From Thermodesulfovibrionia bacterium (lineage in GTDB: Bacteria; Nitrospirota; Thermodesulfovibrionia; Thermodesulfovibrionales; SM23-35), in the NCBI GenBank assembly GCA_041488675.1, contig JBGPPR010000001.1, positions 1 to 31,444 on the forward strand: 31,444 nucleotides of DNA, given 5' to 3'. A model generated the notes under the pieces. It was not told the DNA's origin. It worked only from the letters and a program-made list of their open reading frames with translations, and did no database searches. Made by a program: the position numbers and the translations under genes. The number at the start of each line of letters is the position of its first letter. Within the stretch, counting starts at the first letter, position 1. This document shows positions 1,217 through 29,796 of this stretch, piece by piece.

Positions 1217-1302
1217 ACACAGATGGCCGCAGATGTCACCAACAAATTCACACAGATGTCTTCTGCGATATTCTATATTTTTGTGTCAGTGATTATCTGT
1301 GT
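1217..1302. repeat. Short-repeat imperfect hairpin in the tuf-rpmG spacer (ACACAGATG/CCGCAGATG units)
   Basis: ACACAGATG 1217-1225 and 1250-1258, CCGCAGATG 1227-1235; inverted copies ATCTGTGT 1295-1302 and TCTGCG 1262-1267. Confidence 0.7.
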
Positions 1303-1320
1303 AGAAGAGGAAATGAGGAA

Positions 1321-1473
1321 ATGCGTGATATAATTCTTTTTCAATGCACAGAGTGCAAACATAGAAATTATTCGAGTATGAAGAATAAGAAGAATACACC
1401 GGACAAGCTTCAGTTGAAGAAATACTGCAGACATTGCAGGAGGCATACGGCACACAAAGAGATAAAGGCATAG
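1321..1473 (+). CDS. rpmG: 50S ribosomal protein L33 (Zn-ribbon, CxxC...CxxC form)
   Basis: ATG 1321 after GAGG; [17 protein letters not shown]...[17 protein letters not shown], 50 aa; C-terminal part of track ORF 1150..1473. Confidence 0.97.
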
Positions 1474-1548
1474 GCCAGTAGCTCTAACGGCAAGAGCGTC
1501 GGACTCCAAATCCGAGGGTTGGGGGTTCAAATCCCTCCTGGCCTGCCA
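1472..1548 (+). tRNA. trnW: tRNA-Trp (anticodon CCA)
   Basis: Acceptor AGGCCAG/CTGGCCT, D stem GCTC/GAGC, anticodon stem TCGGA/TCCGA with loop CTCCAAA, T-loop TTCAAAT, discriminator G, encoded CCA end; 77 nt. Confidence 0.98.
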
Positions 1549-1608
1549 TGCATAAGTCATGGGGAAGGAAAGAAGACAAACTATGAACGGGTACGAATAC
1601 AGAAAAAG

Positions 1609-1794
1609 ATGATAAACAAGGTCAAGGAATTTTTAGGGGAAGTAAAAAAAGAAATAAAGAAAGTGGTTTTTCCCTCAAAGGATGAACTGATTGGTTCGAC
1701 CTGGGTTGTCATAATCACCGTTTTGGTTATTTCAATATTTCTGGGGTTTGTTGACCTCGGTCTTTCAAGACTGGTCGGGGTAGCACTAAGGTAA
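1609..1794 (+). CDS. secE: Preprotein translocase subunit SecE
   Basis: 61 aa from ATG 1609; FLGEVKKEIKKVVFPS motif plus one TM helix; between tRNA-Trp and nusG. The track start at 1519 lies inside the tRNA. Confidence 0.95.
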   Translation: MINKVKEFLGEVKKEIKKVVFPSKDELIGSTWVVIITVLVISIFLGFVDLGLSRLVGVALR

Positions 1795-1797
1795 AAA

Positions 1798-2322
1798 ATG
1801 GCAAAGAATTGGTATGTCGTTCACACATATTCAGGATATGAAGAGAAAGTGAAGCTCACGATAGAAGAGCGAAGAGATAAGAAAGGTCTTCAGGATAGAA
1901 TATCGAGAATTCTCATACCCACAGAGAAGATCATAGAGATCAAGAGTGGTAAGAAGAGAGAGAGTGATAAGAAATTTTATCCTGGGTATATCCTCGTGGA
2001 GATGGAAATGGATGACGAGACATGGCACCTTGTCAGGAATACACCACGAGTGACGGGATTTGTTGGCGGAACAACACCAGTTGCCCTCTCTGAGGAAGAG
2101 ATTGCTGTTATCCTTCAACAGCTTGAAAAGGGACCAATGCCGCAGGCTCGGACGAAGTTCTCGAAGGGAGAGCAGGTCAGGATCATCGATGGTCCCTTCA
2201 CAAATTTTGTTGGTTATGTGGAAGACTTTGATATAGACCATGGCAGGCTCAATGTTCTGGTCAGTATATTTGGCAGGCAAACGCCTGTAGAGCTTAATTT
2301 TTCTCAGGTAGAAAATGCATAA
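1798..2322 (+). CDS. nusG: Transcription termination/antitermination factor NusG
   Basis: WYVVHTYSGYE, FYPGYILVEM, VRNTPRVTGFVG, KOW domain, IFGRQTPVEL. Confidence 0.99.
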   Translation: MAKNWYVVHTYSGYEEKVKLTIEERRDKKGLQDRISRILIPTEKIIEIKSGKKRESDKKFYPGYILVEMEMDDETWHLVRNTPRVTGFVGGTTPVALSEEEIAVILQQLEKGPMPQARTKFSKGEQVRIIDGPFTNFVGYVEDFDIDHGRLNVLVSIFGRQTPVELNFSQVENA

Positions 2323-2341
2323 GGACCCTTAGGAGGTTTAG

Positions 2342-2773
2342 ATGGCGAAGAAAAAGGAAGTTACTGCTCAGGTCAAGCTCCAGATACCTGCAGGGAAGGC
2401 GAATCCGGCACCACCGGTAGGACCGGCTCTTGGTCCGCACGGTATCAACATCATGGAATTCTGTAAGTCCTTCAATGCACAGACCCAGACACTTGGAGAT
2501 ACTATAATACCTGTGGTATTAACGGTTTACGCGGATCGGTCCTTTACGTTCATAACCAAGACACCGCCTGCGTCAGACCTTCTGAAAAAGGCAGCAGGTA
2601 TCATAAAAGGTTCAGGCACACCGAACAAAGAAAAGGTTGCAAAAATAACATCAGCACAGGTGAGGGAGATAGCGCAGAGGAAGCTCCCGGATCTAAATGC
2701 CTATTCCCTTGATGAGGCTGAAAAGATAATAAAAGGTACCGCCAGAAGCATGGGTATCGAAATAATAGACTAA
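2342..2773 (+). CDS. rplK: 50S ribosomal protein L11
   Basis: [27 protein letters not shown]; AGGAGG SD. Confidence 0.99.
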
Positions 2774-2782
2774 GGGTGAAAA

Positions 2783-3475
2783 ATGGGAAAGAAGATGAAG
2801 GCAGCAGATGAAAAGATCGAGAGGGGCAAGGAATATTCTCTTGAAGATGCGATACGCCTTGTCAAAGATGCCTCTTATGTAAAGTTTGACGAGACTGTTG
2901 ACCTGGCTTTCAATCTTGGTATTGATCCGAAGAAATCGGACCAGATGGTTAAGGGATCAGTCGTCCTACCTCATGGGATAGGAAAGAAAGTGAGAGTTCT
3001 GGTTTTTGCAAAAGGGGAAAAAGAAAAAGAGGCTGGTGAAGCAGGTGCTGACATCGTCGGAGCGGAGGACCTTGTTGAGAAGATAACTAAAGGATGGCTT
3101 GATTTTGACAAAGCCGTTGCGACGCCTGATATGATGGGCATTGTAGGGAAATTAGGAAAAATACTCGGCCCGCGAGGGCTGATGCCAAACCCTAAACTTG
3201 GCACAGTCACTTTTGATATTACGAGGGCAGTGAAAGAGATAAAAGCAGGGAAGGTTGAGTATAGGGCAGAAAAGGCAGGGATTGTACATGTTGCGATAGG
3301 TAAGGTATCCTTCGATAATCATAAGCTTTTCGATAATGCGAAGGCAGTGGTTGACTCTATTCTCAAGGCCAAACCAGCAACAAGCAAAGGGAGGTATCTG
3401 AAGAAGATATCCATCTCATCAACTATGGGACCGGGGGTGGCGGTTGATATAGCATCTCTGGGAAAGGGGGTATAA
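2783..3475 (+). CDS. rplA: 50S ribosomal protein L1
   Basis: [36 protein letters not shown]. Confidence 0.99.
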
Positions 3476-3476
3476 C

Positions 3477-3995
3477 CTGAAAAAGGGAAAGAAAGAACAG
3501 ATCATAAGTGAGCTTAATGACGAGTTTCATAGAGCAAGGGCGTTGATTTTTACCGATTACAGGGGATTGACCGTAGCTGAGCTTTCAGAATTCCGGGGTC
3601 TGCTGAGGGAGGGAGACATAAAATACAGGGTAGTGAAAAATACCCTCGCAAATATTGCATCTCGGGGGACTTCTGCTTCTGCTGCCCGGGACTCTTTCAG
3701 AGGTCCTGTCGGTGTCGTTATCAGTTTTGATGACCCTGTACTGACAGCGAAGCGGGTCCTCGAGTATTCGAAGAAGAATGAAAAGCTGAAGGTCGGCAGC
3801 GGAATCATTGAGGGAAGGTTCTGCATGCTTGATGATATAAAGGCTGTTGCTGAGCTGCCGTCCAAGAGGGTATTACTGTCCATGATTGCAGGTTCGTTGC
3901 AGGCGTCGATCGGCAAATGTGCAGCCGCCCTCAGTGCCACAATTCATGGTTTTATTCATGCGATGGAAGCATTGAAAAATAAAAGAAGTAGTTAG
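3477..3995 (+). CDS. rplJ: 50S ribosomal protein L10 (probable CTG start, 172 aa)
   Basis: DYRGLTVAEL, RVVKNTL, LPSK motifs. The frame is open upstream of the track start (TTG 3543) to TAG 3450. CTG 3477 follows AAGGGGG (3464-3470) and gives a typical L10 N-terminus (KKGKKEQIISELNDEF). The start is inferred. Confidence 0.93.
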   Translation: MKKGKKEQIISELNDEFHRARALIFTDYRGLTVAELSEFRGLLREGDIKYRVVKNTLANIASRGTSASAARDSFRGPVGVVISFDDPVLTAKRVLEYSKKNEKLKVGSGIIEGRFCMLDDIKAVAELPSKRVLLSMIAGSLQASIGKCAAALSATIHGFIHAMEALKNKRSS

Positions 3996-4072
3996 TGGTC
4001 AGCAGTCAGTAGTTAAGGGAAAATAGTAATATTCTCTTCTGACTGCTTACTGCTGACTATATAACTACTGAC
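3986..4072. repeat. Heptamer-repeat hairpin element (CAG[C/T]AGT units) spanning the rplJ stop and the rplJ-rplL spacer
   Basis: AAGTAGT TAGTGGT CAGCAGT CAGTAGT (3986-4013) and TCTGACT GCTTACT GCTGACT (4038-4058); perfect IRs 3998-4006/4049-4057 and 4005-4014/4063-4072. Confidence 0.8.
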
Positions 4073-4092
4073 AATACAAGGAGGATTGGAAA

Positions 4093-4476
4093 ATGGCTAT
4101 CACAAAGGAAGAGGTTTTTGAGTTTATCGACAACATGACGGTTCTCGAGATGTCAAAGTTCATAAAAGAATTTGAGGAGAGATACGGAGTTACAGCTGCA
4201 GCGCCCGTGGCTTTCGCTGTTATGCCAGGAGCTGCTGTAGGAGCCGCACCGGAAGTAGAAGAAAAGACAAGCTTTGATGTCATCCTGTCTGCTGCCGGTG
4301 AAAAGAAGATACAGGTCATAAAGGTTGTAAGAGAACTTACCGGACTCGGGCTCAAAGAGGCGAAGGACCTTGTTGACGGAGCTCCAAAGCCTGTTAAGAC
4401 AGGTGTTTCGAAAGAGGAAGCTGACTCAGTAAAAGCTAAGCTTGTGGAACAGGGAGCAACAGTCGAGATTAAATAG
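4093..4476 (+). CDS. rplL: 50S ribosomal protein L7/L12
   Basis: [34 protein letters not shown]; AAGGAGG SD 4078-4084. Confidence 0.99.
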
Positions 4477-4487
4477 GGCCTGATGTT

Positions 4488-4529
4488 CGGGATTAGGTTT
4501 GAAGAGCAGGAATGTCTCACCTAATCCCG
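4488..4529 (+). other. Perfect 11-bp inverted repeat (stem-loop) just after rplL; possible attenuator/processing site
   Basis: CGGGATTAGGT 4488-4498 and ACCTAATCCCG 4519-4529, 20-nt loop, no U-tract. Confidence 0.6.
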
Positions 4530-4671
4530 GTACGAAGAGAACAAGAATTCTTAGGAAAGAGCTTGAGAGATAAAACCATACAACATTTGATACAATACGA
4601 GAGTAAACCTTTTTAAGATTGAATATTTTGTCTAACCTAATTCCCAATCCGAGAAAGAAAAAAGGAGAAGT

Positions 4672-7600
4672 ATGCCTAGAGTTTTGAGAGAAAGATTACG
4701 TTTTGGAAATGTCCCCCTCTTTCTTGAAGTCCCTAACCTTGTCGAAATACAGAGGAGGTCCTTTGATAAGTTTGTGCAGAGAGATATACCACCTGACAAG
4801 AGGGAGGAGTTGGGATTGCAGTCCGCATTTCTCAGTGTCTTTCCGATAATGGATTACAATGAAACAGCCTCGATAGAGTTCTTAGGGTACATTGTGAGCG
4901 AACCAAAGTTCAGTGTTCGTGACTGTCTCCAGAAGGGGATTACCTATGCATCTGCGCTAAAGATCAAGGTGAAACTCAATTTCTGGGAAGTTGAGCAAAA
5001 GGGGAACAAGAGATTAAGAGAATCGAGAGAGGAAGATGTCTATGTCGGCGAAATGCCTTTGATGACAGATACGGGCACGTTCATTGTCAACGGCACGGAA
5101 CGTGTCGTTGTAAGTCAGCTTCACCGTTCTCCCGGAGTGTTTTTCAGTTACGACAAAGGGAAGACGCACTCAAGCGGAAGACTTCTCTATTCTGCGAGGG
5201 TGATTCCCTCAAGAGGTTCATGGCTCGATTTTGAGTTTGATGCCAAGGATATCTTGTACGTCAGGATCGATCGGCGGAAAAAGCTTCCCGCAACAATAGT
5301 TCTTAAAGCACTCGGTTATACGAATGAGGACCTCCTGAAAATATTCTATCCCGTCGAAATCATAAAGGTAGAGAAAAATAGATTTACACGTCCTGTCAGC
5401 GAAGTTCTTACAGGTATCAAATCTTCTCAGAACATTGTTGATCCTCACTCAAAGGAATTGATCGTTAAGGAAGGGAGTAAGATTACAAGAGGCGCTATTC
5501 GGAAAATGGATGCCTTTAAGATCAAGGAGATACCAATCTCGAGGGAAGAGATTCTCGGGAGGGTAACCTTGAAGGATATCATTGATCCATCGACAGGGGA
5601 GGTCATACTCGAGGGCAACGAGGTGATTACCGAGGATGCATTGAACAAGATTCTCTCCCTCAAGATCGATATGCTGAGCCTTCTCTTTATCGACAATGTC
5701 AATTATCTGCCTTCTCTCAGGGATACCCTCTTAACAGATGGCGTAAGTACGGGGGCTGAAGCCCTTGTGGAGGTTTACAAGAAACTCAGGCCTGGCGAGC
5801 CTCCTACCTTAAATGCGGCAAAGGCTTTGTTTAGCGGCTTGTTTTTTGACGCAAAACGGTATGACCTTGCACCTGTTGGACGCTTGAAATTGAACAAAAG
5901 ACTTGGTGTCGACGTCACCCTTGAAAACAGGGTGCTCACTGATAAAGACATTATAGAGATTGTCCGATATCTGTTCATTCTCAGGACCGGAAAGGGAGAG
6001 GTTGATGATATAGATCATCTGGGGAACAGGCGAGTCAGAGGCGTTGGGGAGCTTCTTGAAAACCAGTTCAGGATCGGACTCGTGAGAATGGAGCGGGCAG
6101 TAAAGGAAAAAATGACGCTTACAGACCTCGATACTGCCATGCCGCATGATCTCATCAATGCGAAACCCGTGGTAGCTGCTGTCAAGGAGTTTTTTGGTTC
6201 AAGCCAGCTCAGCCAGTTTATGGACCAAACAAACCCTCTCTCCGAAATCACTCATAAGCGGCGACTTTCTGCCCTCGGTCCCGGCGGTCTTACCCGTGAG
6301 AGAGCGGGTTTTGAAGTGAGAGATGTCCACCCAACACACTATGGGAGGATATGTCCGATAGAGACGCCGGAAGGTCCTAATATTGGACTGATAACCTCTC
6401 TTGCCACATACGCAAGGGTAAATGATTTTGGATTTATAGAAGTTCCTTATCGAAAAGTCCTGAATGGAAAGGTAACGAAAACAGTTGAATACCTCTCTGC
6501 AATAGATGGTGAAAAATATATTATTGCTGAGGCAACTTCATCAATGGATAAGCATGGCAATCTGCTTGGAGAAACTGTTTCTGCGAGAGTTGGCGGGGAC
6601 TTCAGGATGGTATTACCCCAGGAGGCACAGTACATGGATGTCTCTCCAAAGCAGATTGTTGGTGTCTCTGCTTCTCTCATACCTTTCCTCGAGAATGATG
6701 ACGCAAACAGGGCATTGATGGGGTCGAATATGCAGAGGCAGGCTGTACCTCTTTTAAATCCGGAAGCCCCGATTGTGGGTACAGGTATGGAAGACGTGGC
6801 AGCGCGGGATTCAGGTGCCCTTGTCCTGGCAAAAAGGGCGGGTGTCATTGAGAGTGTTGATGCATCCCGGATTGTCGTAAGGGTTTCCGATGATGGCAGA
6901 AGTGTAGATATATATAACCTCATAAAGTTTCACAGGTCTAATCAGGCAACATGCATTAACCAGAGACCGATTGTGAGAGTTGGTGATCTCGTCGAGCAAG
7001 ACGATATCCTCGCCGAAGGTCCTTCCACCGAGCTCGGCGATCTCGCCCTTGGCAAGAATGTCCTCGTGGCGTTTATGCCCTGGGGCGGGTACAATTTTGA
7101 GGATGCAATCCTCGTCAGTGAGCTACTTGTGAAGGATGATGTCTTTACGTCAATCCATATTGAAGAATTCGAGATCGAATCGAGAGAGACAAAGCTCGGC
7201 CCTGAAGAAATCACCAGGGATATACCCAATGTTGGCGAAGAGGCACTGAAAGATCTCGACGAGAGTGGGATTATTCGTACAGGCGCTGAAGTGAAGCCGG
7301 GGGATATTCTCGTAGGTAAAGTCACCCCGAAAGGAGAAACGCAACTCACGCCGGAAGAAAAACTCCTGAGGGCCATTTTCGGAGAAAAGGCAGAAGAAGT
7401 AAAGGAGAGTTGTCTGTATGTTCCTCCCGGAATAGAAGGAACGATTCTTGACGTGCGGATATTTTCAAGAAAAGGAACGGAGAAGGATGAAAGAGCAAAA
7501 AGCATAGAAGAAGAAGATATTCAGAGGTTACAGCGGGATTTCGAGGAAGAAGTGAGGATTATAAAGGAGGAGAAATTCAAAAGGTTTAGAGAACTCCTTA

Positions 7601-8604
7601 CGGGGCAAAAAGTCACCGAGGATGTAAGAGACCAAAAGACCAAGGAGGTTATGTGTCCTGAAGGCGGGAAACTCAAAGCTGAACATGTTAACCGGATAAA
7701 GGATGAACATCTGATGCGCATAAAGATTGAAACCGCGGCTATTCGCGAGAAGATGGAGGCTCTCCATAATGAAACGAGCCAGTACATCCGCTACCTTGAA
7801 TCGAGGTACGATGAAAGAATAGACCGGGTAAAGACTGGTGACGAACTCTCCCACGGAGTCAATAAGGTTGTCAAAGTATATGTTGCGATGAAACGGAAAG
7901 TCCAGGTCGGTGATAAGATGGCCGGCCGGCACGGCAATAAGGGGGTAGTTGCAATGATCCTTCCTGAAGAAGATATGCCGTATTTGCCTGACGGAACGCC
8001 TGTTGATATCGTTCTCAACCCCCTGGGAGTCCCGTCAAGGATGAACGTGGGGCAGATACTCGAGACACACCTGGGGTGGGCCGCAAAAGCCCTGGGACTG
8101 CATGTAGCAACTCCTGTCTTTGAGGGTGCAAAGGAATCAGATATAAAGGATTACCTCGGTAAGGCCGGTCTACCGAAATCCGGTCAGATAACCCTCTGCG
8201 ATGGCAGGACCGGCGAGCTCTTTGATAAACCTGTGACTGTCGGACAGATGTATATGATGAAACTCCATCACCTCGTAGATGATAAAATGCATGCCCGTTC
8301 CATCGGACCCTATTCTCTTGTTACGCAGCAGCCCCTCGGCGGGAAAGCCCAGTTTGGTGGACAGAGGCTCGGTGAAATGGAGGTATGGGCTCTCGAGGCG
8401 TACGGTGCGGCCTATACGCTTCAGGAATTTCTTACCGTTAAGAGTGATGATGTTACGGGAAGGGCACACATGTATGAAGCAATTGTGAAAGGAGATGCAA
8501 CCCTGGAACCTGGGATTCCGGAATCCTTTCATGTATTAATAAAAGAACTCCAGAGCCTCGGACTTGATGTAGAACTTCTGGAGAAAAAGGAGAAGGGAGA
8601 ATAA
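4672..8604 (+). CDS. rpoB: DNA-directed RNA polymerase subunit beta
   Basis: 1310 aa; [55 protein letters not shown]. Confidence 0.99.
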
Positions 8605-8606
8605 GT

Positions 8607-11600: not shown

Positions 11601-12710
11601 AAAGTAGAAATAGGACAGAGGCTCGTTGAGTGGGATCCTTACGCCACACCGATACTGACTGAGATCGGTGGGAAAGTGGCGCTCGGAGATATTGTTGAAG
11701 GGGTAACGGTGAAGGAAGAGGTTGATGAGACAACAGGCCTTTCCCACAAGGTTATCATCGAGTATCCTGCGACTATGAGGCCGAGGATATCAGTCAAGGA
11801 TGAACAGGGCAGGACAACAAAGATCCCGGGTACAAGCAATCTCGCGCGGTATCTCCTGCCTTCAGGCGCACACATACTCGTTGAAAAGAACGACGGTGTA
11901 CATCCGGGTGACATACTTGCAAAGATTCCAAGGGAGACTACAAAGACAAAGGATATAACCGGAGGACTTCCCAGAGTCGCCGAACTCTTTGAGGCGAGGC
12001 GGCCGAAGGAGCAGGCGATCGTCGCTGAGATAGGCGGCATGGTAGAGTTCAGAGGTGCACAGAAGGGAATGCGCGTTGTTGTTGTAAAGGGTGGAGATGA
12101 CGTGAGGGAATATCTGATACCGAAAGGCAAGCACGTCAGTGTTCATGAGGGTGACTGGGTAAGGGCCGGAGAACCGCTCATGGACGGTGCTGTGAATCCT
12201 CACAATATTCTTGACATCCTTGGACCGAAGGAGCTCCAGCGATATCTTGTTGATGAAGTCCAGAAAGTTTACCGGCTCCAGGGTGTTTCTATCAATGACA
12301 AACATATTGAAATTATTGTAAGGCAGATGATGAAGAAGGTAAGGATTGAGGACCCGGGTGATACGATGTTCCTCACAGGGGAACAGGTGGACAGGCCGCA
12401 GTTCCAGGAAGAGAATGCAGCAGTGAAGGCGCAAGGCGGCAAACCTGCACAGGGTAAGCCCCTTCTCCTTGGTATCACAAAGGCATCTCTGTCAACAGAC
12501 AGTTTTATCTCTGCTGCCTCTTTCCAGGAGACAACAAGGGTACTCACAGAGGGAGCAATCAATGGTGCTGTTGATGAACTCAGGGGACTCAAGGAGAATG
12601 TGATCATGGGAAGGGTCATCCCAGCCGGCACAGGAATGACAAAGTACAAGAATACCTTTGTGAAACGCGATCTCCAATTTTTGATTCCTGAACCCCAGCA
12701 GGCCGAATAA
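8607..12710 (+). CDS. rpoC: DNA-directed RNA polymerase subunit beta'
   Basis: 1367 aa, TTG start 2 nt after rpoB; catalytic [10 protein letters not shown], Zn-finger [20 protein letters not shown]. Confidence 0.99.
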
Positions 12711-12719
12711 TAGATCCAT

Positions 12720-15907: not shown

Positions 15908-15977
15908 AAATCTCTCTTGATTTTACTGAATCCTTTTTGTTGTGTTCATTTTAATATACCAAGCTAAGAAGTAAGTC

Positions 15978-16007
15978 ATTATACCAGAAGACTAAAGACG
16001 TTCTGAA
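15978..16007 (-). promoter_or_regulatory. Putative sigma70 promoter for the ATPase
   Basis: Minus strand TTCAGA-N18-TATAAT with extended -10 (TGG TATAAT), 70 nt upstream of ATG. Confidence 0.5.
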
Positions 16008-16161
16008 TTTATGATATCGAATCTCATATCTGATTGAAACCCTCACTTAACTGCAGGGGCAATACGAAATTGCGATCATCTCTGATGCACAGCGGCAAAC
16101 TATTGTGGAGTTTTTATCGCGCTCTCTGACTTATGAACTGTGGCTCTTTTGTACTTTTGGA

Positions 16162-17837: not shown

Positions 17838-17850
17838 ACAAAAAACCTTT

Positions 17851-19512: not shown

Positions 19513-19545
19513 ATCTATCTTTTCCTCCTTTTCTCCTAAGTAAAA

Positions 19546-19598
19546 ACTATACTGGTTGAGGAAAGGTATTGTCAAGACAGGGGATAGAATTATATAAT
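19546..19598. promoter_or_regulatory. Putative bidirectional sigma70 promoter with overlapping -35 boxes
   Basis: + strand TTGTCA(19569-74)-N18-TATAAT(19593-98); - strand TTGACA(19575-70)-N18-TATAGT(19551-46). Confidence 0.65.
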
Positions 19599-19611
19599 TA
19601 GTAATTAAATT

Positions 19612-22055
<2,444 letters not shown>

Positions 22056-22057
22056 CA

Positions 22058-22885
22058 TTGACCAGAGAAATAAACATAGGAAATGCAAGACTTGGAGGCA
22101 ATAATCCACTTTTCATCATTGCAGGTCCCTGTGTTATTGAAAGCCAGGATGTTGTTTTTTATACTGCGGAAAAACTGAAAGAAATATGCCGGAGAGTTGG
22201 ACTTTCCTTTATTTTTAAGAGTTCTTATGATAAATCCAACAGGACATCCCTTTCCTCATTCAGGGGCCCGGGAATGGAAAAGGGATTAAAGATGCTTTCT
22301 GATGTCAGGAGCAAATTCAATGTTCCGGTAATTTCTGATGTCCATGCAATAGAGGAGATTAAACCTGCCTCTCAGGTTCTTGATGCTCTTCAGATACCTG
22401 CTTTTTTGAGCAGACAAACTGATTTAATCCTTGCAGCATCCCGCACGGGCAAACCTGTGAATATCAAGAAAGGCCAGTTCCTTGCCCCCTGGGATGTTAA
22501 AAATATCATTGATAAATTTACCTCTACAGGCAATCAAAACCTTTTCATTACAGAGAGGGGAACATCCTTTGGATATAATAATCTTGTTGTCGACTTCAGA
22601 GGATTAACCATTATGAAGTCTTTTGGATATCCCATTCTTTTTGATGTGACTCACAGCCTGCAACTTCCAGGCGGAAAGGGAAACTCCTCGGGAGGGCAGA
22701 GGGAATTTGCAGAACCTCTTGCAAGGGCAGCTGCAGCAGTTGGAGTAGACGGGCTCTTCATCGAGGTCCATCCTGATCCTGACAGGGCATTGTGTGACGG
22801 ACCAAATATGGTTTCAGTAGATAGTGTCCTTGCTCTTTTGAGGACGGTGGAAAATATTCACACGGCAGTCTTTCCCCAGAGATAG
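22058..22885 (+). CDS. kdsA: KDO 8-phosphate synthase (probably metal-dependent: AGPC Cys, DVTHS, CDG)
   Basis: IAGPCVIE, SYDKSNRTS, QIPAFLSRQTDL, NIKKGQFL, ERGTSFGY; TTG start. Confidence 0.98.
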   Translation: MTREINIGNARLGGNNPLFIIAGPCVIESQDVVFYTAEKLKEICRRVGLSFIFKSSYDKSNRTSLSSFRGPGMEKGLKMLSDVRSKFNVPVISDVHAIEEIKPASQVLDALQIPAFLSRQTDLILAASRTGKPVNIKKGQFLAPWDVKNIIDKFTSTGNQNLFITERGTSFGYNNLVVDFRGLTIMKSFGYPILFDVTHSLQLPGGKGNSSGGQREFAEPLARAAAAVGVDGLFIEVHPDPDRALCDGPNMVSVDSVLALLRTVENIHTAVFPQR

Positions 22886-22915
22886 TTTTACGGATTGCGT
22901 GAACTGCAAAAATTT

Positions 22916-23269
22916 ATGGAAATAAAATATTTTTTCTATTTCTTGACGGGTGGGATCGTTGTGAGTGTCGTTACCTTTTTCGCCAGCCATGCAAAAGGTC
23001 TGCTGGCAGCCTTCCTCGCAAATTTACCGGTTGTGACAATGATAACGTTTTTGACCATTTATTTTGAATCCGGACAGAAGGCTGTCGTTTCATATGCTGA
23101 GGGGCTTATCATCATGCTCTTCCCCTGGCTTGCTTATATATTTTCTGTAGTCTTTTTGACAAGGAGAACAGGATTCCTTCCCGCACTGATTATCGGAATT
23201 TCCCTCTACCTTGTATGCGCCTATTTCATAATGAATGCAAAAAAATATTCTGATGAAGCGTTTTTTTGA
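22916..23269 (+). CDS. DUF3147/GlpM-like small membrane protein
   Basis: About 4 TM helices; FLTGGIVVS..., LAAFLANLP pattern; start may be ATG 22916 or TTG 22895. Confidence 0.6.
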   Translation: MEIKYFFYFLTGGIVVSVVTFFASHAKGLLAAFLANLPVVTMITFLTIYFESGQKAVVSYAEGLIIMLFPWLAYIFSVVFLTRRTGFLPALIIGISLYLVCAYFIMNAKKYSDEAFF

Positions 23270-23311
23270 CAATTATCCAAGGCAAGAAGCATATCCTGTT
23301 TCTTGAACGGC

Positions 23312-23338
23312 ATGAGATTTTTCATATGAAAAGCTCAT
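23312..23338. promoter_or_regulatory. Palindromic candidate operator upstream of the kdsD promoter
   Basis: ATGAG-AT-TTTTCATATGAAAA-G-CTCAT; perfect 14-bp core 23319-23332. Confidence 0.45.
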
Positions 23339-23348
23339 ATTAGAAGGC

Positions 23349-23377
23349 TTTAAAAGATGAAGGTGATACGATATAAT
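23349..23377 (+). promoter_or_regulatory. Putative sigma70 promoter for the kdsD operon
   Basis: TTTAAA(23349-54)-N17-TATAAT(23372-77). Confidence 0.5.
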
Positions 23378-23457
23378 AGCCTCGTGGATTTAGTTCAGAT
23401 CCCGGCAGTGTCTGTGAAAATATTGACAAGAACAGATAATCTGGAGACCTTGATTGA

Positions 23458-24426
23458 ATGGACAATATTCTTGATATAGCAAGAAAGGTCTTGAGAACAG
23501 AAGCAGATGCCGTCTATGCCCTGATCGAAAGGCTTGGCAGCAATTTTGAGAAGGCTGTTGAGAGTATTTATGAATGCAGAGGGAGAGTGGTTGTAACCGG
23601 CATGGGCAAGTCTGGTCTTGTTGGTAAGAAGGTAGCAGCCACACTGGCGTCAACAGGCACGCCCGCCTTTTTCCTGCACCCTGCAGAGGCAGGTCATGGC
23701 GACCTGGGAATGGTTACCTCCCGTGATGTCCTATTAGCCATCTCTAACAGCGGTGAGACAGAAGAAATTGTGGGGTTGATACCTTTTTTAAAGAGGTTCA
23801 ACCTTTGCCTTATCTCAATAACAGGAAATCCAAACTCTACGTTGTCCAGGGCGGCTGACGTCACTCTCGATGTCTCTGTAAAGGAAGAGGCATATCCCTT
23901 CGGCATTGTGCCGACGGCATCAACGACTGCGGCCATGGCAATCGGTGATGCCCTGGCTGTTGCCCTGCTCGTGAAAAAAGGCCTAAAAGAAGAAGACTTT
24001 GCCTTTTTCCATCCCGGGGGAAGCATTGGCAAGAAACTGCTCATTACCGTGCAAGACCTTATGCATAAGGGGGGCAATATCCCAAAGGTGTTTCTTGATA
24101 CACCGATGTCAAAGGCGGTGATAGAGATGTCTTCCAAGAGACTTGGCCATACCATTGTCCTGGACAATAACGGCAGGGTTGCGGGGATCATTGCCGACGG
24201 AGATGTAAGGAGGGGCTTGGAAAAATGGGGCGGCCGGCTCTTTGAGTTGACAGCAAAAGAGGTTATGTCGGGAACCCCTAAAACATTACGTGAAGAGGAA
24301 CTGGCTGCGAAAGCATTGTCTATTATGGAAAGTCATTCAATAACAGCCTTGGTTGTACTTGATGGCGATGGTCGAGCAATCGGGATAATACACCTCCACG
24401 ATATATTGAGACAGGGAATAGTCTGA
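23458..24426 (+). CDS. kdsD: Arabinose 5-phosphate isomerase (KpsF/GutQ family, SIS + 2 CBS)
   Basis: GMGKSG, ATLASTGTPAFFLHPAEAGHGDLG, SNSGET, FHPGGSIG, tandem CBS domains. Confidence 0.96.
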   Translation: MDNILDIARKVLRTEADAVYALIERLGSNFEKAVESIYECRGRVVVTGMGKSGLVGKKVAATLASTGTPAFFLHPAEAGHGDLGMVTSRDVLLAISNSGETEEIVGLIPFLKRFNLCLISITGNPNSTLSRAADVTLDVSVKEEAYPFGIVPTASTTAAMAIGDALAVALLVKKGLKEEDFAFFHPGGSIGKKLLITVQDLMHKGGNIPKVFLDTPMSKAVIEMSSKRLGHTIVLDNNGRVAGIIADGDVRRGLEKWGGRLFELTAKEVMSGTPKTLREEELAAKALSIMESHSITALVVLDGDGRAIGIIHLHDILRQGIV

Positions 24427-24437
24427 AAGATTCGAGA

Positions 24438-24980
24438 GTGAAAAAAAATTCCGAGAAGAAGCTCCTGAACTTTGCCAGGCACATTAAGATAGTTATTGTT
24501 GATGTTGATGGCGTCCTTACTGATGGCAGCATTATGCTGGATAATGAGGGAAATGAGTTCAAGTCCTTCCATGTGAGAGATGGACATGGAATCAAGATGC
24601 TCATAAGGGCAGGGTTCATAGTGGCGATGATTACGGGTAGATATTCGAAAGTTGTCGAGAGGAGGGCTTCTGAACTCGGCATAACCGAAGTCTATCAGAG
24701 GTGTCATGACAAGAGGGTTCCCTATCGTCATCTGCTTGAAAAATATTCCGTCGACTCAGGAAAGGTCGCATATATTGGTGACGATATCGTTGATCTCCCT
24801 CTCTTGCAAGGGGTTGGATTTTCCGTCGCTGTTGCAGATGCTGCTGAAGAAGCAAAGAGAGCTGCAATGATGATAACAAAAAGTAAGGGAGGCAGGGGCG
24901 CCGTCAGAGAAGTATGTGATTTTCTTTTAAAAGCAAAGGGTCTGTGGGAAGGCATAATCGATGAATACTCTCAGGCTTAA
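24438..24980 (+). CDS. kdsC: KDO 8-phosphate phosphatase (HAD)
   Basis: DVDGVLTDG, FHVRDGHG, ITGR, YIGDDIVD, GGRGAVRE; GTG start. Confidence 0.96.
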   Translation: MKKNSEKKLLNFARHIKIVIVDVDGVLTDGSIMLDNEGNEFKSFHVRDGHGIKMLIRAGFIVAMITGRYSKVVERRASELGITEVYQRCHDKRVPYRHLLEKYSVDSGKVAYIGDDIVDLPLLQGVGFSVAVADAAEEAKRAAMMITKSKGGRGAVREVCDFLLKAKGLWEGIIDEYSQA

Positions 24981-25650
24981 CCTGCCGACGGTCCTGACGT
25001 TGAGCAGGATTCTCCTCGTCCCCGTTTTTATATTCTCTGTCTATCAGCATCAGATAGTCGGTGCCCTAATATTCGGAATCGCCTCAATAACAGATTACCT
25101 CGACGGTTATTTCGCACGTCACTCCGGAGAAATAACGAAATTGGGGATTATCCTTGATCCTCTTGCAGACAAGTTCTTAGTTATATCTGCGCTGATTGTA
25201 CTCGTTGACATGGAAAGGCTGCCGGCATGGATAGCAATTGTTATCATAGTGCGGGAGTTCCTCGTGACAGGTCTTAGGGCTGTAGCCCTTTCAAAAAATG
25301 TTATCATCCCGGCCGAAATGGGGGGCAAGATGAAGACCTTTACGCAGATAATTGCCATTCTCTGTCTCATTCTCATGGGGAGCATATTCGACAAAATGGT
25401 GATTGTATTCGCAGTTATTGCTTCCTTTCTCTTTTATGCAACATATTTAATACAACAAAGATATAAGAGGTTAGCACGGAAAATAACAGCGATATCATTG
25501 TCTATTATTGCTTTTGGGGTTATATCGGCTCTATTTTCTCCTCGAATAGACAGTCTTTACGATGCCGGATTTATATTGATATCGGTTGCGCTTATGCTGT
25601 CTATAATATCAGGAGCCCAGTACACTATATCTTTCTGGAGAAAGATATGA
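24961..25650 (+). CDS. pgsA: CDP-diacylglycerol--glycerol-3-phosphate 3-phosphatidyltransferase, with an internal hydrophobic insertion
   Basis: DYLDGYFAR-x8-G-x3-DPLADK motif, REFLVTGLR, GKMKT; 229 aa. Confidence 0.93.
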   Translation: MNTLRLNLPTVLTLSRILLVPVFIFSVYQHQIVGALIFGIASITDYLDGYFARHSGEITKLGIILDPLADKFLVISALIVLVDMERLPAWIAIVIIVREFLVTGLRAVALSKNVIIPAEMGGKMKTFTQIIAILCLILMGSIFDKMVIVFAVIASFLFYATYLIQQRYKRLARKITAISLSIIAFGVISALFSPRIDSLYDAGFILISVALMLSIISGAQYTISFWRKI

Positions 25651-25680
25651 AAAAAAGGTGATGATATCATTTATATACAT

Positions 25681-26268
25681 ATGCTGAAAATAACTCTCCT
25701 TATTATTTGTGCCTTTATAATGGGATCGATCCCTGTTGGTATGTTAGTAGCAAAGGCAAAAGGGGTTGACCTTAAAAAGGTTGGAAGCGGAAATATTGGT
25801 GCAACCAATGTCCTGAGGTCTCTCGGAAAGGGACCGGCTGCTTTAACCCTCCTTGGCGACATGCTGAAGGGTACTCTCGCAGTAGCACTGGGAAGATACT
25901 TTGGACTGGGAACTTTCTATGAAGGTATCATAGGTCTTTCGGCCATCCTTGGGCATAACTTTTCCGTCTTCCTGGGCTTCAGAGGAGGTAAAGGAGTTGC
26001 GACAAGCCTTGGAGTATTTATCCTTTACTCTCCACGAACAGCTCTCATTACTTTTGTGATATGGATGGCGGTTGTTATAACTACAAAGTATTCTTCTCTC
26101 GGTGCTCTTATATCCTTTGGACTCTTGCCATTAAACATTATTCTTTTCGATAGTAAAGACAAGCTTCCTGTCGCTCTTCTTGTAACACTTTTTATTCTCA
26201 TACGCCATACAGATAATATCCAAAGGCTCATGAAAGGCACTGAGAGAAGGATAGGAGAACGCGTGTGA
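25681..26268 (+). CDS. plsY: Glycerol-3-phosphate acyltransferase PlsY
   Basis: GSIP, GSGNIGATNVLR, GHNFSVFLGFRGGKGVATSLG, RHTDNIQRL. Confidence 0.97.
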   Translation: MLKITLLIICAFIMGSIPVGMLVAKAKGVDLKKVGSGNIGATNVLRSLGKGPAALTLLGDMLKGTLAVALGRYFGLGTFYEGIIGLSAILGHNFSVFLGFRGGKGVATSLGVFILYSPRTALITFVIWMAVVITTKYSSLGALISFGLLPLNIILFDSKDKLPVALLVTLFILIRHTDNIQRLMKGTERRIGERV

Positions 26269-27935
26269 AAAAGTTTTCTATCGCAGTTTTCTTGTCTTTG
26301 CTTCTCATTCCTTTTTTTTCAGCAGGGAAAGATTTCTATGAAGAACAGCTTGATAGAGGGATCAGAAATTCAGAGTCTTACTCATATTTTCTCATAGAGA
26401 AGTCAAGAGCAAATCCTTCCCAAAAGGAGGAAATTCTGAAAGAAGCATTGAGATGCTCTCCAGACTTGCCGGCAGTATATTTTGAGTTATCAAAGGCCAA
26501 TTTTTCCGCCTTTGGAGGAAGGATGTACAAAGCCTATGATTATATGCTCGGAGGAATAGAGGCATATAAGAGGAACTTTTGGTGGACCTTTACGCTTGCG
26601 GGTTCCCTTTTCTTGGGTTTGATCATTTCCTTTGTCTTCTCCATGTTAATTATTATTATCATAAGGCTTATGAGAGATTTGCCTCTTCTTACTCACGATA
26701 TCATGGAGCGGAAGAACAGGATGCTCCTCCTTCTAATTGTAATCATTTCAGCTTTTGCAGGGCCTCTCCTCTTAATGGGAAGTATCCTCATCGTACTCGG
26801 ACTTTATTTGAAAAAAGTTGACAGATCTGTTGTTTATCTGTACCTTCTTTTTCTCTTCCTTTCCCCATGGCTCTTAAAAGCCTCTTCGATCGCTTTTAGT
26901 GTCCCTTCTTCGAGCGTCCTTAAGGCAGTTATTGAAGTCAATGAGTCAAGAGATAGCAGATATGCCCTTTCTGTTCTGAATAATTCCGAAGATGAAGCAG
27001 CCCTTTCCTCGTATGCCCTTGCCTTGAAACGTGAAGGGTATTACGACGAGGCGATAGAGATATACAATAAACTTATTGCGGGAAATCCCGACCCTGCATT
27101 TTACAACAATCTTGCAAATTGCTATGTTGCAAAAGATGATTTGGAAAAGGCCATAAAACTCTATCAACAATCGATACAGATAAAACCTCTTGTTTCTGCT
27201 TACTACAATATGAGCCAGGTTTTGAGAAGGACACTCGATTTGGTGAAAGGTGAGGAGTATTTTCTCTATGCTCAAAGGATGGATCCTGATGCAATTACAG
27301 GGTTCCAGGCAGTCTTCAGCCAGAACCCGAACAGACTTGTTGTTGATGAAGTCCTTCCAATCTCAGCTCTCTGGGAATACTCTCGCGAGAAAGCAGCCGG
27401 AGTCTCTGCATTTGGCTTGTCAATGCTACCGCCGAGACGGTTGCCTGTTCTGGCTGTTTTCATTGGTGCCCTGTTTTATGTATTAAACAAGCGCATGAGA
27501 GCCAGGGCATACAGGTGCAAGAAATGCGGTACAATCATCTGTAACAAATGTGTGAGAAGAGTACTGTGGGGAAATATGTGTTTGCAGTGTTATAAATCCC
27601 TGATTGAACTCCATGAACTCGATGCAAGAGAGAGAATCACAAGGCTTAAGACTGTTTATGAATATCAGATGAGACGTAGAAGTATACTAAAGGTCCTGTC
27701 TTTCCTGCTGCCGGGATCTGCCTACATATATGCAGGATTCGTATTAAAAGGTTTTTTCATTCTCTGGTTGTTCTTATTCCTCCTGACAGCCTTCATCATC
27801 AGTTCTACCTTTGTGGTTGGAATGCCTTATTTTCCGCACCTCTGGCTGAATTGGGGTGCTCCTTTCCTTCTGGTAATGGTACTTCTCGTATCTAATATCA
27901 TTACACAACTGAGGCTTGCCAAGGGATGGCTTTGA
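26265..27935 (+). CDS. Multi-pass membrane protein with TPR repeats and a 6-Cys zinc-finger-like motif
   Basis: Signal-like N-terminus, several TM stretches, TPR-like repeats (ALKREGYYDEAIEIY, FYNNLANCY...AIKLYQQSI), CxxC-x4-CxxC-x9-CxxC at 27516-27590; GTG start overlapping the plsY stop. Confidence 0.8.
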   Translation: MKKFSIAVFLSLLLIPFFSAGKDFYEEQLDRGIRNSESYSYFLIEKSRANPSQKEEILKEALRCSPDLPAVYFELSKANFSAFGGRMYKAYDYMLGGIEAYKRNFWWTFTLAGSLFLGLIISFVFSMLIIIIIRLMRDLPLLTHDIMERKNRMLLLLIVIISAFAGPLLLMGSILIVLGLYLKKVDRSVVYLYLLFLFLSPWLLKASSIAFSVPSSSVLKAVIEVNESRDSRYALSVLNNSEDEAALSSYALALKREGYYDEAIEIYNKLIAGNPDPAFYNNLANCYVAKDDLEKAIKLYQQSIQIKPLVSAYYNMSQVLRRTLDLVKGEEYFLYAQRMDPDAITGFQAVFSQNPNRLVVDEVLPISALWEYSREKAAGVSAFGLSMLPPRRLPVLAVFIGALFYVLNKRMRARAYRCKKCGTIICNKCVRRVLWGNMCLQCYKSLIELHELDARERITRLKTVYEYQMRRRSILKVLSFLLPGSAYIYAGFVLKGFFILWLFLFLLTAFIISSTFVVGMPYFPHLWLNWGAPFLLVMVLLVSNIITQLRLAKGWL

Positions 27936-28996
27936 GAGGTTCTTTAGAAGTCTTTGGCCTTGCCGATATACTCCAACTGATTCATTTCCAGCGGAAGAGC
28001 GGGGTTCTTGCCTTGGAGGGAGAGAAAGATGAGGTAAAGGTCTTTTTCATGGAGGGCAACATTGTAAGAGCTACATCACAAAGGAGGCAGGAAGACGCCA
28101 GGCTGGGGAAGGTGCTTCTGAAAAGAGGTGCCTTGAAGGATGAAGACCTGCAAATTGCTCTCGAGGAACAACGCAGAACGGGAAAGGCGCTCGGCGGTAT
28201 CCTCCTGAAAAAGGGGGTTGTTGATAAAGAACACATAAAGGAAGTTTTGACCGGCCAGATTACTGAAACAGTTCTCCAATTGTTTAGCTGGGAGAAGGGG
28301 ACCTATGAGTTTACACCTCAGGCAATAACTCTTGATTCCGCCGGTGATAAGGAAGTTCCCATAACTCTTGATACTCAACACCTGCTTATGGAGGGCCTGA
28401 GGATACTTGATGAATGGTCTGTCCTTGAAGGAAGATTAGCGCTCGATGCAGTTTTAATAATTACTACAGGGGCTGTTGCTGATTTGAGCAAAGAGGAGCA
28501 AGAAATCCTGCCGTTGGTAGACGGAGAAAATGATCTCAGCACAATAATCGATATCAGCGGAAAAGACGGGTTCACAGTAGCCAAAATCCTCTTTTCCCTC
28601 ATGGGCAAAGGAATTGTGGAAGCCAAAGAGGTTGCTCCTGTTATTGAAGAGCCATTAGAAGAAGTAAGAATACCAAGGATTTCTGATTCAGTATTGTATA
28701 AAGTTGCTGTGAAGGGAGCGATAGTAATTTCCGTCATGCTCTCACTTTCTCTCGCTTTTTTAAATGGGGATGATACAATTAAGAAATTCAGGGCGTCAAA
28801 AGCAGTTGAGAGCTTGAGGTTGAAGATAGAAGCGTATAAGTTTGAGCACGGTGATTACCCGGAGACATTGGATGCTGTATCCAGACAATTAGATCCCTGG
28901 AAAAGACCTTACATTTACAAACACGGTATGCATACATTTGTTGTCATGAGTACTGGGGCGGACGGAAAAGAAGGAACTGCAGACGATGTTTTCTGA
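27926..28996 (+). CDS. DUF4388 (PatA_N-like) protein with tandem MshEN-like motifs, one TM helix and a C-terminal GspG-like pseudopilin head
   Basis: [18 protein letters not shown]...KSGVL (DUF4388); RLG..LL..G....L..AL..Q x2 (aa 59-111); TM aa ~261-279; IEAY..EHGDYP...DPWKRPYIY...[13 protein letters not shown]. Confidence 0.8.
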
Positions 28997-29007
28997 AGGG
29001 TGAAGAG

Positions 29008-29796
29008 ATGACGAGAAGGAAAGCTGTGGTTCTCCTCAGCGGGGGAATTGATTCGTCAACGACCCTTGCAGTTGCAAAATCCGAGGGGTATGAATTATAC
29101 GCCCTCAGTTTTGATTATAACCAACGGCACAAGAGGGAGATTGAGTCCGCACAGTTGGTTGCCGAAGCCCTTGGAGTTGGACGGCATCTTATTATTCATT
29201 TTGATCTCCGGAGCATCGGGGGTTCGGCTCTCACTTCAGATAGGAAAGTACCCAAACGAGTCACAATTAACGAGCCACAAGTAACGTGTGAAAAAAAGGA
29301 CTCGTCACTAATTCCGGTGACCTATGTCCCGGCCCGCAATACAATTTTTCTCTCCTTTGCCCTGGGTTGGGCAGAGGTTTTAGAGGCTGAGGATATCTTT
29401 ATCGGTGTAAATTCCGTCGACTATAGCGGTTATCCCGACTGCAGACCTGAATACCTTTGGGCATTTGAGGATATGGCAAACCTTGCAACAAAAGCTTCTG
29501 TTGAAGGCAGGTTAAGGTTTGTGATAAGAGCGCCTCTCGTATCAATGGAAAAATCTGAGATAATCAAGAAGGGAGTGGAACTCGGGCTTGATTACTCTTT
29601 AACCTGGAGCTGCTATGACCCGCAGAAAGGCGGTGATGCGTTATCCGTAATGCGTAATGGGATGAGAAAAAACACACATTACACTTCACGCATTACTCAT
29701 CACAATTATGTCCCCTGTGGTTTATGTGAGAGCTGCGTAATCCGCACAGAAGGTTTCAGAAAGGCGGGGTTAAAGGATCCGCTCATGGAGCCCTAA
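29008..29796 (+). CDS. queC: 7-cyano-7-deazaguanine synthase, with two repeat-derived in-frame insertions
   Basis: [36 protein letters not shown]...CGLCESC..R. Confidence 0.97.
29255..29309 (+). repeat. Degenerate heptamer repeat with an inverted half, in frame in queC (insertion 1)
   Basis: AACGAGT CACAATT AACGAGC CACAAGT AACGTGT (29255-89); GACTCGT 29299-305 is the reverse complement of ACGAGTC 29256-62. Confidence 0.7.
29632..29704 (+). repeat. 4x7 + 4x7 heptamer hairpin, in frame in queC (insertion 2)
   Basis: GGTGATG CGTTATC CGTAATG CGTAATG, 17-nt loop, CATTACA CTTCACG CATTACT CATCACA. Confidence 0.85.

Follow-up and report, generated by a model that had tools for sequence, protein, structure and literature searches.

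Dispersed palindromes with arms of heptanucleotide units in gene spacers and protein-coding loops of a bacterium of the Thermodesulfovibrionales

Contig C1 from the genome of an uncultured sediment bacterium (Nitrospirota, Thermodesulfovibrionales), analysed here as one stretch of 31,444 nucleotides (the window), carries five short repeat-built features, which lie, as a preliminary description of this DNA had stated, both in spacers (1217-1302 in tuf-rpmG, 3986-4072 in rplJ-rplL) and in coding regions (three within kdsB and queC). These features are probably, though far from certainly, members or decayed remnants of several families of small (about 50-110 nt) dispersed palindromes, non-coding in origin, whose arms are short runs of degenerate 7-nt units and which would be propagated mainly by a copy-and-replace process. 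Whole elements have evidently been copied between unrelated sites and genomes, and copies evidently persist between genes, as well as within genes where the product tolerates them and the frame is free of stops. Judging from orthologous loci, an occupied site stays a hot spot, at which the cassette is swapped or refreshed faster than the flanking protein diverges, and a unit change spreads to all the units of an array (concerted evolution). The orthologue comparison covers the same genus, family and order, the nearest loci for QueC being found in metagenome-assembled genomes labelled Nitrospirota / Thermodesulfovibrionia / Thermodesulfovibrionales. Our literature search returned no description of such elements in Nitrospirota.

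A scan of the whole assembly (1.42 Mb in 300 contigs, about 85% complete) for 7-nt periodicity and inverted repeats, with shuffled sequences as controls, which is the check that had been proposed, gave a density far above chance. Four-copy arrays number 20 at period 7, at most 4 at any other period from 4 to 13 and 8 at period 14, and none occurs in dinucleotide shuffles; three-copy arrays with up to two mismatches number 65 at period 7 versus 4.4 in local shuffles, and the 14 and 2 found at periods 8 and 9 show no comparable enrichment beyond period 7. A complementary partner within 120 nt accompanies 23 of the 65 arrays at a score of at least 10 (5 and 2 in two controls) and 15 at a score of at least 12 (none in the controls). 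About two-thirds of the arrays are without a clear complementary arm, and some elements (C109, C35:445 and loop 1 of L034) have arms that are not complementary. Among distinct hairpins, the purine-rich arm stands 5' in 18 of 20 (p = 4e-4), in agreement with the earlier claim of a purine-rich arm followed by its pyrimidine-rich complement, and this polarity appears on both strands because the element is a palindrome. Additionally, the consensus units resemble one another beyond chance, with 154 near-identical pairs versus 47-64 in random or shuffled 7-mers. A common architecture, specific to period 7 and far above chance, is thereby supported: arms built of heptamers, the purine-rich arm first, and an A-rich centre.

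BLAST clustering at E <= 1e-4 left most of the arrays unlinked, as they are too short and degenerate, and a graph of units joined by single mismatches was too permissive for defining families, yet it reveals the excess similarity. A count of reverse-complement units (one mismatch) gave controls nearly as high, and diagonal scoring was used instead. Arrays also abound around queC in related genomes, where 59 Nitrospirota loci hold 78 of them in 156 kb, versus 3 in 55 kb at 21 loci of other phyla. Stop avoidance, considered as a cause of the purine-first polarity, was rejected, since the elements have on average 1.35 of six frames open versus 2.4 in random genomic pieces, their density of stop triplets is higher than in such pieces, and swapping their halves alters little.

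All five stretches are present in the window at the positions first given (Table 1), and four of them are clearly periodic at 7 nt, element 1 being the weak exception. Tandem Repeats Finder reports period 7 at 20115-20144 (4.3 copies, 91% matches, score 53), 29636-29659 (3.4 copies) and 4039-4058 (2.9 copies), and period 14 at 29255-29286 (score 50) and 29673-29708, with no row at 1217-1302. The description of all five as hairpins proved overstated for the window. The fold of 3984-4075 is significantly stable (-43 kcal/mol, z = -8.0, equalled by none of 200 shuffles), whereas those of 1212-1305 (z -1.1), 29250-29315 (z -1.0) and 29628-29712 (z -1.25) do not individually go beyond shuffles and 20100-20160 forms no hairpin (z +1.0). 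The unit sequences do differ, as had been said, and the five are not copies of one miniature inverted-repeat transposable element (MITE); nevertheless, for four of the five a connection can be drawn with dispersed families or with an orthologous element of congeners.

Element 1 has no second copy in this genome, and metagenome contigs from three runs join 1218 to 1307, omitting exactly this element; these contigs may come from related organisms. Another heptamer hairpin, with the unit AAAAATC, occupies the tuf-rpmG spacer of the relative G009, the one genome for which this comparison was informative, as the search in relatives mostly retrieved the second tuf copy. That copy lies upstream of rpsJ (C16:1-141 in this genome; L169 and L171 in relatives), and the spacer on its 3' side holds an AAAGTGA-type array in G008. 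The left arm of element 2 overlaps the stop codon of rplJ (TAG, 3993-3995) and its last codons (..KNKRSS), so that the C-terminus of ribosomal protein L10 has been remodelled by the element; a related second copy of the CAGCAGT hairpin is located at C31:8008-8041. Element 3 has no complementary arm. In this genome, the AAGAGCA pattern of its GAGCAGA unit is matched 16 times, over about 9 contigs (none in the control); the pattern is rare elsewhere in the phylum, and an orthologous (AAGAGCA/GAAGAGC)x4 array is present in KdsB of the congener G002. Element 4 has no second copy that could be found in this genome, and its ACGAGT/ACTCGTC family is represented at the same site by fuller hairpins in the congeners G001 and G002. 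Element 5 has arms of 16 nt with 81% complementarity.

The copying of whole elements can be followed in the CGTAATG family, to which element 5 belongs. With at most two mismatches, and in some cases exactly, the 20-mer GCGTTATCCGTAATGCGTAA (29638-29657) recurs across the class: 58 of 301 genomes hold it, these belong to 10 families, and a single genome can have up to 13 sites, versus about 0-1 per genome for the reversed 20-mer. At 30 fetched loci one element of about 75-90 nt is seen (AAAGACCGTRATGCG, heptamers, A-rich centre, heptamers, CGCATYACGGTCTTT), and these copies have in common 15-nt terminal inverted repeats, the centre and the internal irregularities, their arms being complementary as well as their termini. 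This genome holds a further copy at C146:1600-1653 (87% over 54 nt) and another at C79. A phage vehicle was set aside, as the 20-mer has no exact copy in viral contigs.

Seventeen CGTAATG copies lie within long open reading frames (ORFs) and are read in one frame throughout (..KDRNALSVMRNE(L/I)K...THHASRITHH...), from which the conserved peptide ..DRNALSVMRNE..SRITHH.. emerges. Besides loops 1 and 2 of QueC, the hosts confirmed by Pfam are CbiG/TP_methylase (twice), a class I/II aminotransferase (BioF-like), LpxB, TsaD, LeuRS (twice), a BadF/BcrA-type activase and a PMT_2/PAP2 membrane protein. A reverse-oriented copy in the Pfam-confirmed activase of L152 encodes a similar peptide, as follows from the palindromic nature of the element; five more reverse copies stand in long open frames, these hosts being known as open frames only. 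TTA is present in all 17 coding copies and TAA or TGA in 10 of 16 others, a pattern that arises in part by construction, given that an in-frame stop would end an ORF, and that shows filtering or a coding-competent sub-family. It does not show a local repair of TAA to TTA in QueC. At L160 (QueC loop 1 of G186), the CGTAATG arms pair into host codons (AACCGGAATGCG ... CGCATTCCGGTT), with ATTCCGGTT encoding the conserved IPV; apparently, the palindrome either grew into its flank or was fitted to it.

The same sites are occupied again and again. QueC loops 1 and 2, the KdsB loop and the rplJ-rplL spacer hold arrays in most of the related genomes examined, with units that differ from one genome to another and, in the QueC loops, often with a partly complementary second arm. 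Loop 2 of QueC has AGTTCAA...GAACTCC in most genomes, CGTAATG...CATTACG here and GAAGTCA, AAAGTGA or ACAGAAA elsewhere; in the KdsB loop, this genome and G002 have GAGCAGA/AAGAGCA, four congeners an ACGAGTT hairpin and other relatives GTCACGG, CAGGATA or AGTTTCA; in the rplJ-rplL spacer, occupied in 10 of 12 family genomes checked, CAGCAGT/TAGTAGT is common to this genome and three congeners, other relatives having hairpins of AAGTTAA, GAACAGT or CGCCTTA. Cassettes are also shared between sites, as in G009, whose QueC loop 1 and KdsB loop carry an identical CAGGATA...CATGCATC cassette. Several other families of the order, as well as other phyla, have "empty" QueC loops (about 51 nt for loop 1, 18-33 nt for loop 2), and distant relatives have short KdsB loops and an element-free rplJ-rplL spacer of 33-50 nt. 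Since the QueC loops are longer than their counterparts in outgroups, net insertion is indicated.

Turnover at these sites is considerable. On a QueC tree built with the loops removed (68 rows, modest resolution), at least 22 unit-family changes per loop are required. Loop 1 is 98% identical between L028 and L039, and loop 2 is entirely different between the same border codons; the pairs L018/L019 and L024/L045 likewise combine near-identical QueC cores with differing loops. Different unit families at one site in such close relatives point to replacement of the whole cassette. Change within a cassette is seen between the near-identical L034 and L044, where every unit of the array carries the same substitution (CAACTAT, four times, versus CAACTCT-type). 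The question whether these are recent insertions or ancient loops is thus answered by both: the sites are old, being occupied across the family and parts of the order, and, given near-identical cores with differing cassettes, their content is swapped wholesale or homogenised quickly.

LpxB (loci L183-L196, of G100 and relatives) provides a case outside the original sites. In G100, about 27 residues of a native helix-strand segment have given way to a CGTAATG element with no change in protein length; congeners have decayed versions of the element, and more distant relatives have unrelated native sequence. Together with the fixed borders of the QueC cassettes, this case would favour templated replacement rather than simple transposition. 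The native LpxB segments are purine-rich (Glu/Lys codons) and then pyrimidine-rich (Leu/Val codons), and one may speculate that such segments act as natural proto-hairpins which attract conversion. Heptamer hairpins can themselves be hosts: palindromes of a C-run and a G-run sit in the centres of those at C8:4803-4848, C102:1482-1530 and C111:3785-3826, and also in coding loops, the nested element CCCCCC..TTTAGTAAA..GGGGGG being found for instance in QueC loop 2 of L007, and a related nested type, CCCTCCCCC..GGGGGAGGG, in QueC loop 2 of L039 and the KdsB loop of L103.

At the protein level, the claim that the inserts are tolerated in loops agrees with the AlphaFold model of QueC, where they form low-confidence segments outside the confident core (mean predicted local distance difference test score 85.7, core above 90, residues 89-98 in element 4 and 219-228 in element 5 below 50); the inserts thus appear compatible with the QueC fold. 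The zinc-motif cysteines C202, C237, C240 and C243 are invariant in 40 sequences.

The behaviour of the elements on a shorter scale was followed in metagenome contigs of near-identical strains from four independent studies, the strain being present in sediment and wetland populations (runs X1-X20). Element 2 is spanned in four of four metagenomes and element 3 in two of four, with no indel and no replacement, the sole difference being 4060 T>C, present in all four populations, which turns a G.U pair into a G.C pair. Since the same sequence is recovered in the contigs of four studies, the elements are real and not assembly artefacts; contigs of this kind drop rare variants, and minor alleles are possible. 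A hypermutable slippage or contingency locus was rejected because there is no length variation among the near-identical strains (contigs of two to four metagenomes). Across four congeners, the orthologues of the rplJ-rplL hairpin keep 31 pairs, 4 of them via compensatory double changes, which are expected either from selection on the stem or from copying of one arm onto the other.

From these observations, propagation would proceed mainly by copy-and-replace between hairpin-forming copies, through ectopic short-patch gene conversion or through template switching at stalled or extruded hairpins, with slippage inside the arrays as an additional process; cut-and-paste by a dedicated transposase seems less likely. 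The elements would probably be selfish or neutral passengers rather than regulators. Several points weigh against this explanation. Arms that are not complementary, and arrays that have no clear partner, imply that hairpin formation is not essential for persistence; no donor-recipient event has been observed, and neither exact junctions nor target-site duplications could be defined; elements 2 and 3 neither vary in copy number nor are replaced among near-identical strains, which shows that turnover is slow on the strain scale and that slippage is not rampant; and the conserved, compensated rplJ-rplL hairpin could mean a function for some copies. Additionally, the 7-nt length of the units and the purine-first order are not accounted for, and 15-nt terminal inverted repeats would equally fit a MITE mobilised by a transposase.

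The last of these points leads to the principal alternative, which we hold to be possible but rather doubtful, namely that the elements are classical MITEs, that is, non-autonomous transposons with terminal inverted repeats which are mobilised in trans by an insertion sequence with matching ends or by an enzyme of the Y1/RAYT (REP-associated tyrosine transposase) type, the hot spots then reflecting a target preference for existing hairpins. The inverted termini and the many dispersed copies fit such an origin, although inverted termini are trivial for a palindrome; the patchy distribution of the CGTAATG family over 10 families of the class and the nesting of the CCCCCC..TTTAGTAAA..GGGGGG palindrome in the centres of heptamer hairpins fit it as well. 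Orthologue alignments, which had been suggested as a means of finding target duplications, did reveal presence and absence of elements, but no target-site duplication was recognised in the flanks of the fetched copies, and what LpxB and the QueC loops display is replacement between fixed borders, not addition. Y1 transposase genes do exist in this genome and its relatives. Nevertheless, Y1_Tnp (the one transposase family examined) is present in five of five element-rich genomes and equally in five of five without the CGTAATG family, and the four Y1 loci are neither flanked by heptamer arrays nor surrounded by heptamer hairpins, the sole array (at L165) being more than 1 kb from the gene. A RAYT/Y1 transposase as mobiliser is therefore unsupported. 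Of the shared generating or propagating mechanism that had been proposed at the outset, the shared architecture and the copying of whole elements stand, whereas no co-occurring enzyme was found, the Y1 transposase, the one candidate tested, being non-discriminating.

A functional origin, in which intergenic hairpins would be kept by selection (as processing sites, attenuators, stabilisers of the ribosomal-protein operon or protein-binding arrays) and the coding copies would be by-products, appears improbable. What speaks for it comes mostly from the rplJ-rplL spacer: its occupation in most of the family genomes checked, the pairs that its orthologous hairpin retains via compensatory changes, and the 4060 T>C change, which betters a pair in all four populations; in addition, a role in translation has been suggested by MacGregor for the TAACTGA heptamers that precede start codons (PMC4679880). 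Compensation, however, is also predicted by arm-to-arm copying, other families of the order do without an element in the same spacers and loops, and the sequence families are freely exchanged at one site. The same elements are, moreover, found within coding loops, and no Rfam family matches them (in a scan of the window the sole match was a tRNA gene).

Purely local origin is less probable still. Here, slippage on the spot, with a 7-nt preference set by the polymerase, and fold-back template switching would generate each array with no transfer between sites. Among long simple repeats, those of heptanucleotides are indeed reported to be the most frequent in many bacteria, at least as cited in PMC4679880; unit changes inside arrays are concerted, the units form a cloud linked by single changes, and the L160 arms extend into host codons (ATTCCGGTT). 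Against it, dozens of genomes and more than 10 unrelated genes hold the same element of about 80 nt, irregular units, centre and termini included, and array length is not polymorphic among near-identical strains. Such dispersed whole-element copies exclude purely local slippage as the sole process, which survives only as a mechanism of growth and homogenisation within an element. Finally, that the host genes of different species exchange their loops by homologous recombination, with the cassettes as imported alleles, is hardly credible: replacement borders fixed in conserved codons and close relatives that differ in a single loop would suit it, and a similar idea has been raised for the P6b region of Nostoc trnL (PMC4476775), but it leaves unexplained the same element in loop 1, loop 2 and other genes, as well as the identical QueC and KdsB cassettes within G009.

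The surroundings of the elements are summarised in Table 1 together with other repeats of the assembly. The gene order of the window is tuf, rpmG, tRNA-Trp, secE-nusG-rplKAJL and rpoBC, with kdsB and queC farther on; the name kdsB is the one that we presume from sequence motifs. The 5' end of the tRNA-Trp gene (1472-1545, Rfam 65 bits) falls within the region of the rpmG stop codon. Two differences between metagenome populations lie outside the elements: an in-frame insertion of 21 nt in rpoB after 6900 in population X2, which repeats imperfectly, in tandem, the 21 nt before it (window 6879-6900) and has no heptamer periodicity, and an extra AAC in the intergenic region after 15950 in three of four populations. 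The assembly also contains small dispersed repeats of five or more other families, and its fragmentation is probably due in part to the many repeat families.

Table 1. Repeat-built elements of the window, the genes that host them and other dispersed repeats of the assembly (C, contig).
Feature	Position	Strand	Description
Element 1	1217-1302		Degenerate, CACAGATG-type words, 10-bp outer stem; tuf-rpmG spacer; weakest of the five
Element 2	3987-4069		Strong hairpin, CAGCAGT/CAGTAGT family; rplJ-rplL spacer
Element 3	20115-20144	+	(GAGCAGA)x4.3 tandem array, translated; KdsB loop between YFSRSPIPY and YKHIGIY
Element 4	29255-29309	+	Decayed element of the ACGAGT/ACTCGTC family; QueC loop 1, after VPK; 7-bp stem only
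Element 5	29625-29712	+	CGTAATG/CATTACG palindrome copy; QueC loop 2, between Cys202 and the CxxCxxC zinc motif
kdsB (presumed CMP-KDO synthetase)	19612-20400	+	Hosts the GAGCAGA array; basis: translation, orthologues
queC (7-cyano-7-deazaguanine synthase)	29008-29796	+	Hosts two elements; basis: translation, orthologues, model
Dispersed repeat TGTCATTCCCGCTTGTCGGGAATC...			About 40 copies in the assembly
Dispersed repeat GAAAATAGCCGAGGCATCTTGCCTCGG...			About 20 copies in the assembly
Dispersed repeat, start CTAACCCAGATTATTCAC...			About 190 nt; about 15 copies in the assembly
Dispersed repeat CCCTCCCCCTTGAGGGGGGAGGG...			About 18 copies in the assembly
Dispersed repeat AAATCCCCCCTCACCCCCCTTTAGTAAAGGGGGGAAGGGGGGATT			About 15 copies in the assembly
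Other dispersed repeats, example sites	C32:1805-1914, C127:2855-2926, C39:1934-2129, C119:4347-4460, C183:1241-1288		

A bolder proposal, which we judge unlikely, is that heptamer-lattice palindromes constitute a distinct class of mobile DNA with its own machinery, which would recognise 7-nt-periodic hairpins and swap cassettes at occupied sites, and which would be common to Thermodesulfovibrionia, Nostocales and perhaps Beggiatoaceae. If so, this machinery would be shared or horizontally passed among these groups and would account for the class switching in the P6b stem of Nostoc trnL, and the in-frame remodelling of essential enzymes would be a regular evolutionary process outside Rickettsia, of which in-frame protein-coding palindromes have hitherto been treated as a peculiarity. 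The origin and class switching of heptamer hairpins have been an open matter since the Nostoc trnL work (PMC4476775). The present lineage combines numerous families and host genes with clear hot spots, and dozens of its genomes are public, at graded distances, so that the choice of donor, the junctions, the rate and the associated genes can be tested by comparative genomics. In practical terms, the inserts inflate and diversify loops of marker proteins (QueC, KdsB, LpxB, TsaD, LeuRS), as well as the C-terminus of L10.

Among the systems already known, the repetitive extragenic palindromic sequences (REPs), their inverted pairs (REPINs) and the associated RAYT transposases (PMC3116915) resemble the present elements in being short, palindromic and dispersed, in evolving in concert within genomes and in occurring as inverted pairs. 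REPs, however, lie outside genes, do not form heptamer lattices and are linked to a RAYT gene which they flank, whereas the Y1 genes found here neither track the elements nor carry them as flanks. The TAACTGA heptamer direct repeats of Beggiatoaceae, cyanobacteria and Bacteroidetes (MacGregor 2015, PMC4679880) are similar in their genome-wide excess of tandem heptamers, in a patchy distribution that suggests horizontal spread with no known vehicle, and in being mostly intergenic. They differ in consisting of one unit only, arranged as direct repeats that hardly ever pair into hairpins (one inverted case), and in their position just upstream of start codons, stops keeping one orientation out of genes.

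Small dispersed repeats (SDRs) of 21-27 nt, whose mobility was inferred from orthologous loci, were reportedly described in Nostoc punctiforme by Elhai et al. in 2008. They share with the present elements a very small size, the capacity to form hairpins, the lack of a transposase and nesting in other repeats; they are not built of heptamers, and their closest counterpart here is the nested CCCCCC..TTTAGTAAA..GGGGGG element.

Closer parallels are found in cyanobacterial heptamer repeats, the short tandemly repeated repetitive (STRR) sequences said to go back to Mazel in 1990. The present arrays share with them, and with the P6b stem of the trnL(UAA) intron, tandem 7-nt units that are specific in period, and unit classes that replace one another at one site. 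In Nostoc and Calothrix, that stem is a hairpin of degenerate heptanucleotide repeats (Costa 2002; PMC4476775; PMC3488679), with two unrelated unit classes (TDNGATT and NNTGAGT) that have the same architecture at the same site and replace each other repeatedly on the phylogeny, with changes in copy number and side insertions of small elements, and with an evolution described as unresolved (PMC4476775, PMC3488679). Among the cyanobacterial units CCCCAGT, TDNGATT and NNTGAGT, the last has similar units here in AATGAGT (L139) and GACGAGT (C213, C267), a likeness to the published unit sequences only. Both arms being made of complementary heptamers, as in P6b, applies to about one-third of the arrays (23 of 65 versus 2-5 in controls), and neither to the kdsB array nor to several elements whose arms do not match. 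P6b, moreover, is one site in a non-coding intron, whereas here many sites and unit families are involved, in another phylum and with translated copies.

The protein-coding side has its counterpart in the Rickettsia palindromic elements (RPEs) of Ogata et al. (2000, 2002), as they are summarised in a review of MITEs (PMC10969869), where the frequency of in-frame palindromes in Rickettsia is called unusually high and their presence in other prokaryotes only speculated upon. In both cases, there are several families of short dispersed palindromes, many of them in frame in unrelated housekeeping genes, with a conserved peptide that is read, host proteins that stay intact and an insert outside the folded core. 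The likeness to RPE families is one of description and membership is not claimed, since phylum and length differ: Rickettsia is an intracellular parasite, whereas the present hosts are free-living anaerobes of another phylum, and RPEs measure about 100-150 nt, whereas the elements here measure about 50-110 nt and have arms that are lattices of 7-nt units. Additionally, sites are re-used here, cassettes are exchanged between families, and the LpxB element replaces native sequence. The analogies drawn from the start with RPEs (the in-frame peptide) and with cyanobacterial heptamer repeats (class switching of heptamer-armed hairpins) hold up, and the present lineage is a second one with protein-coding palindromes, which combines the phenomena of RPEs and STRRs in one system.

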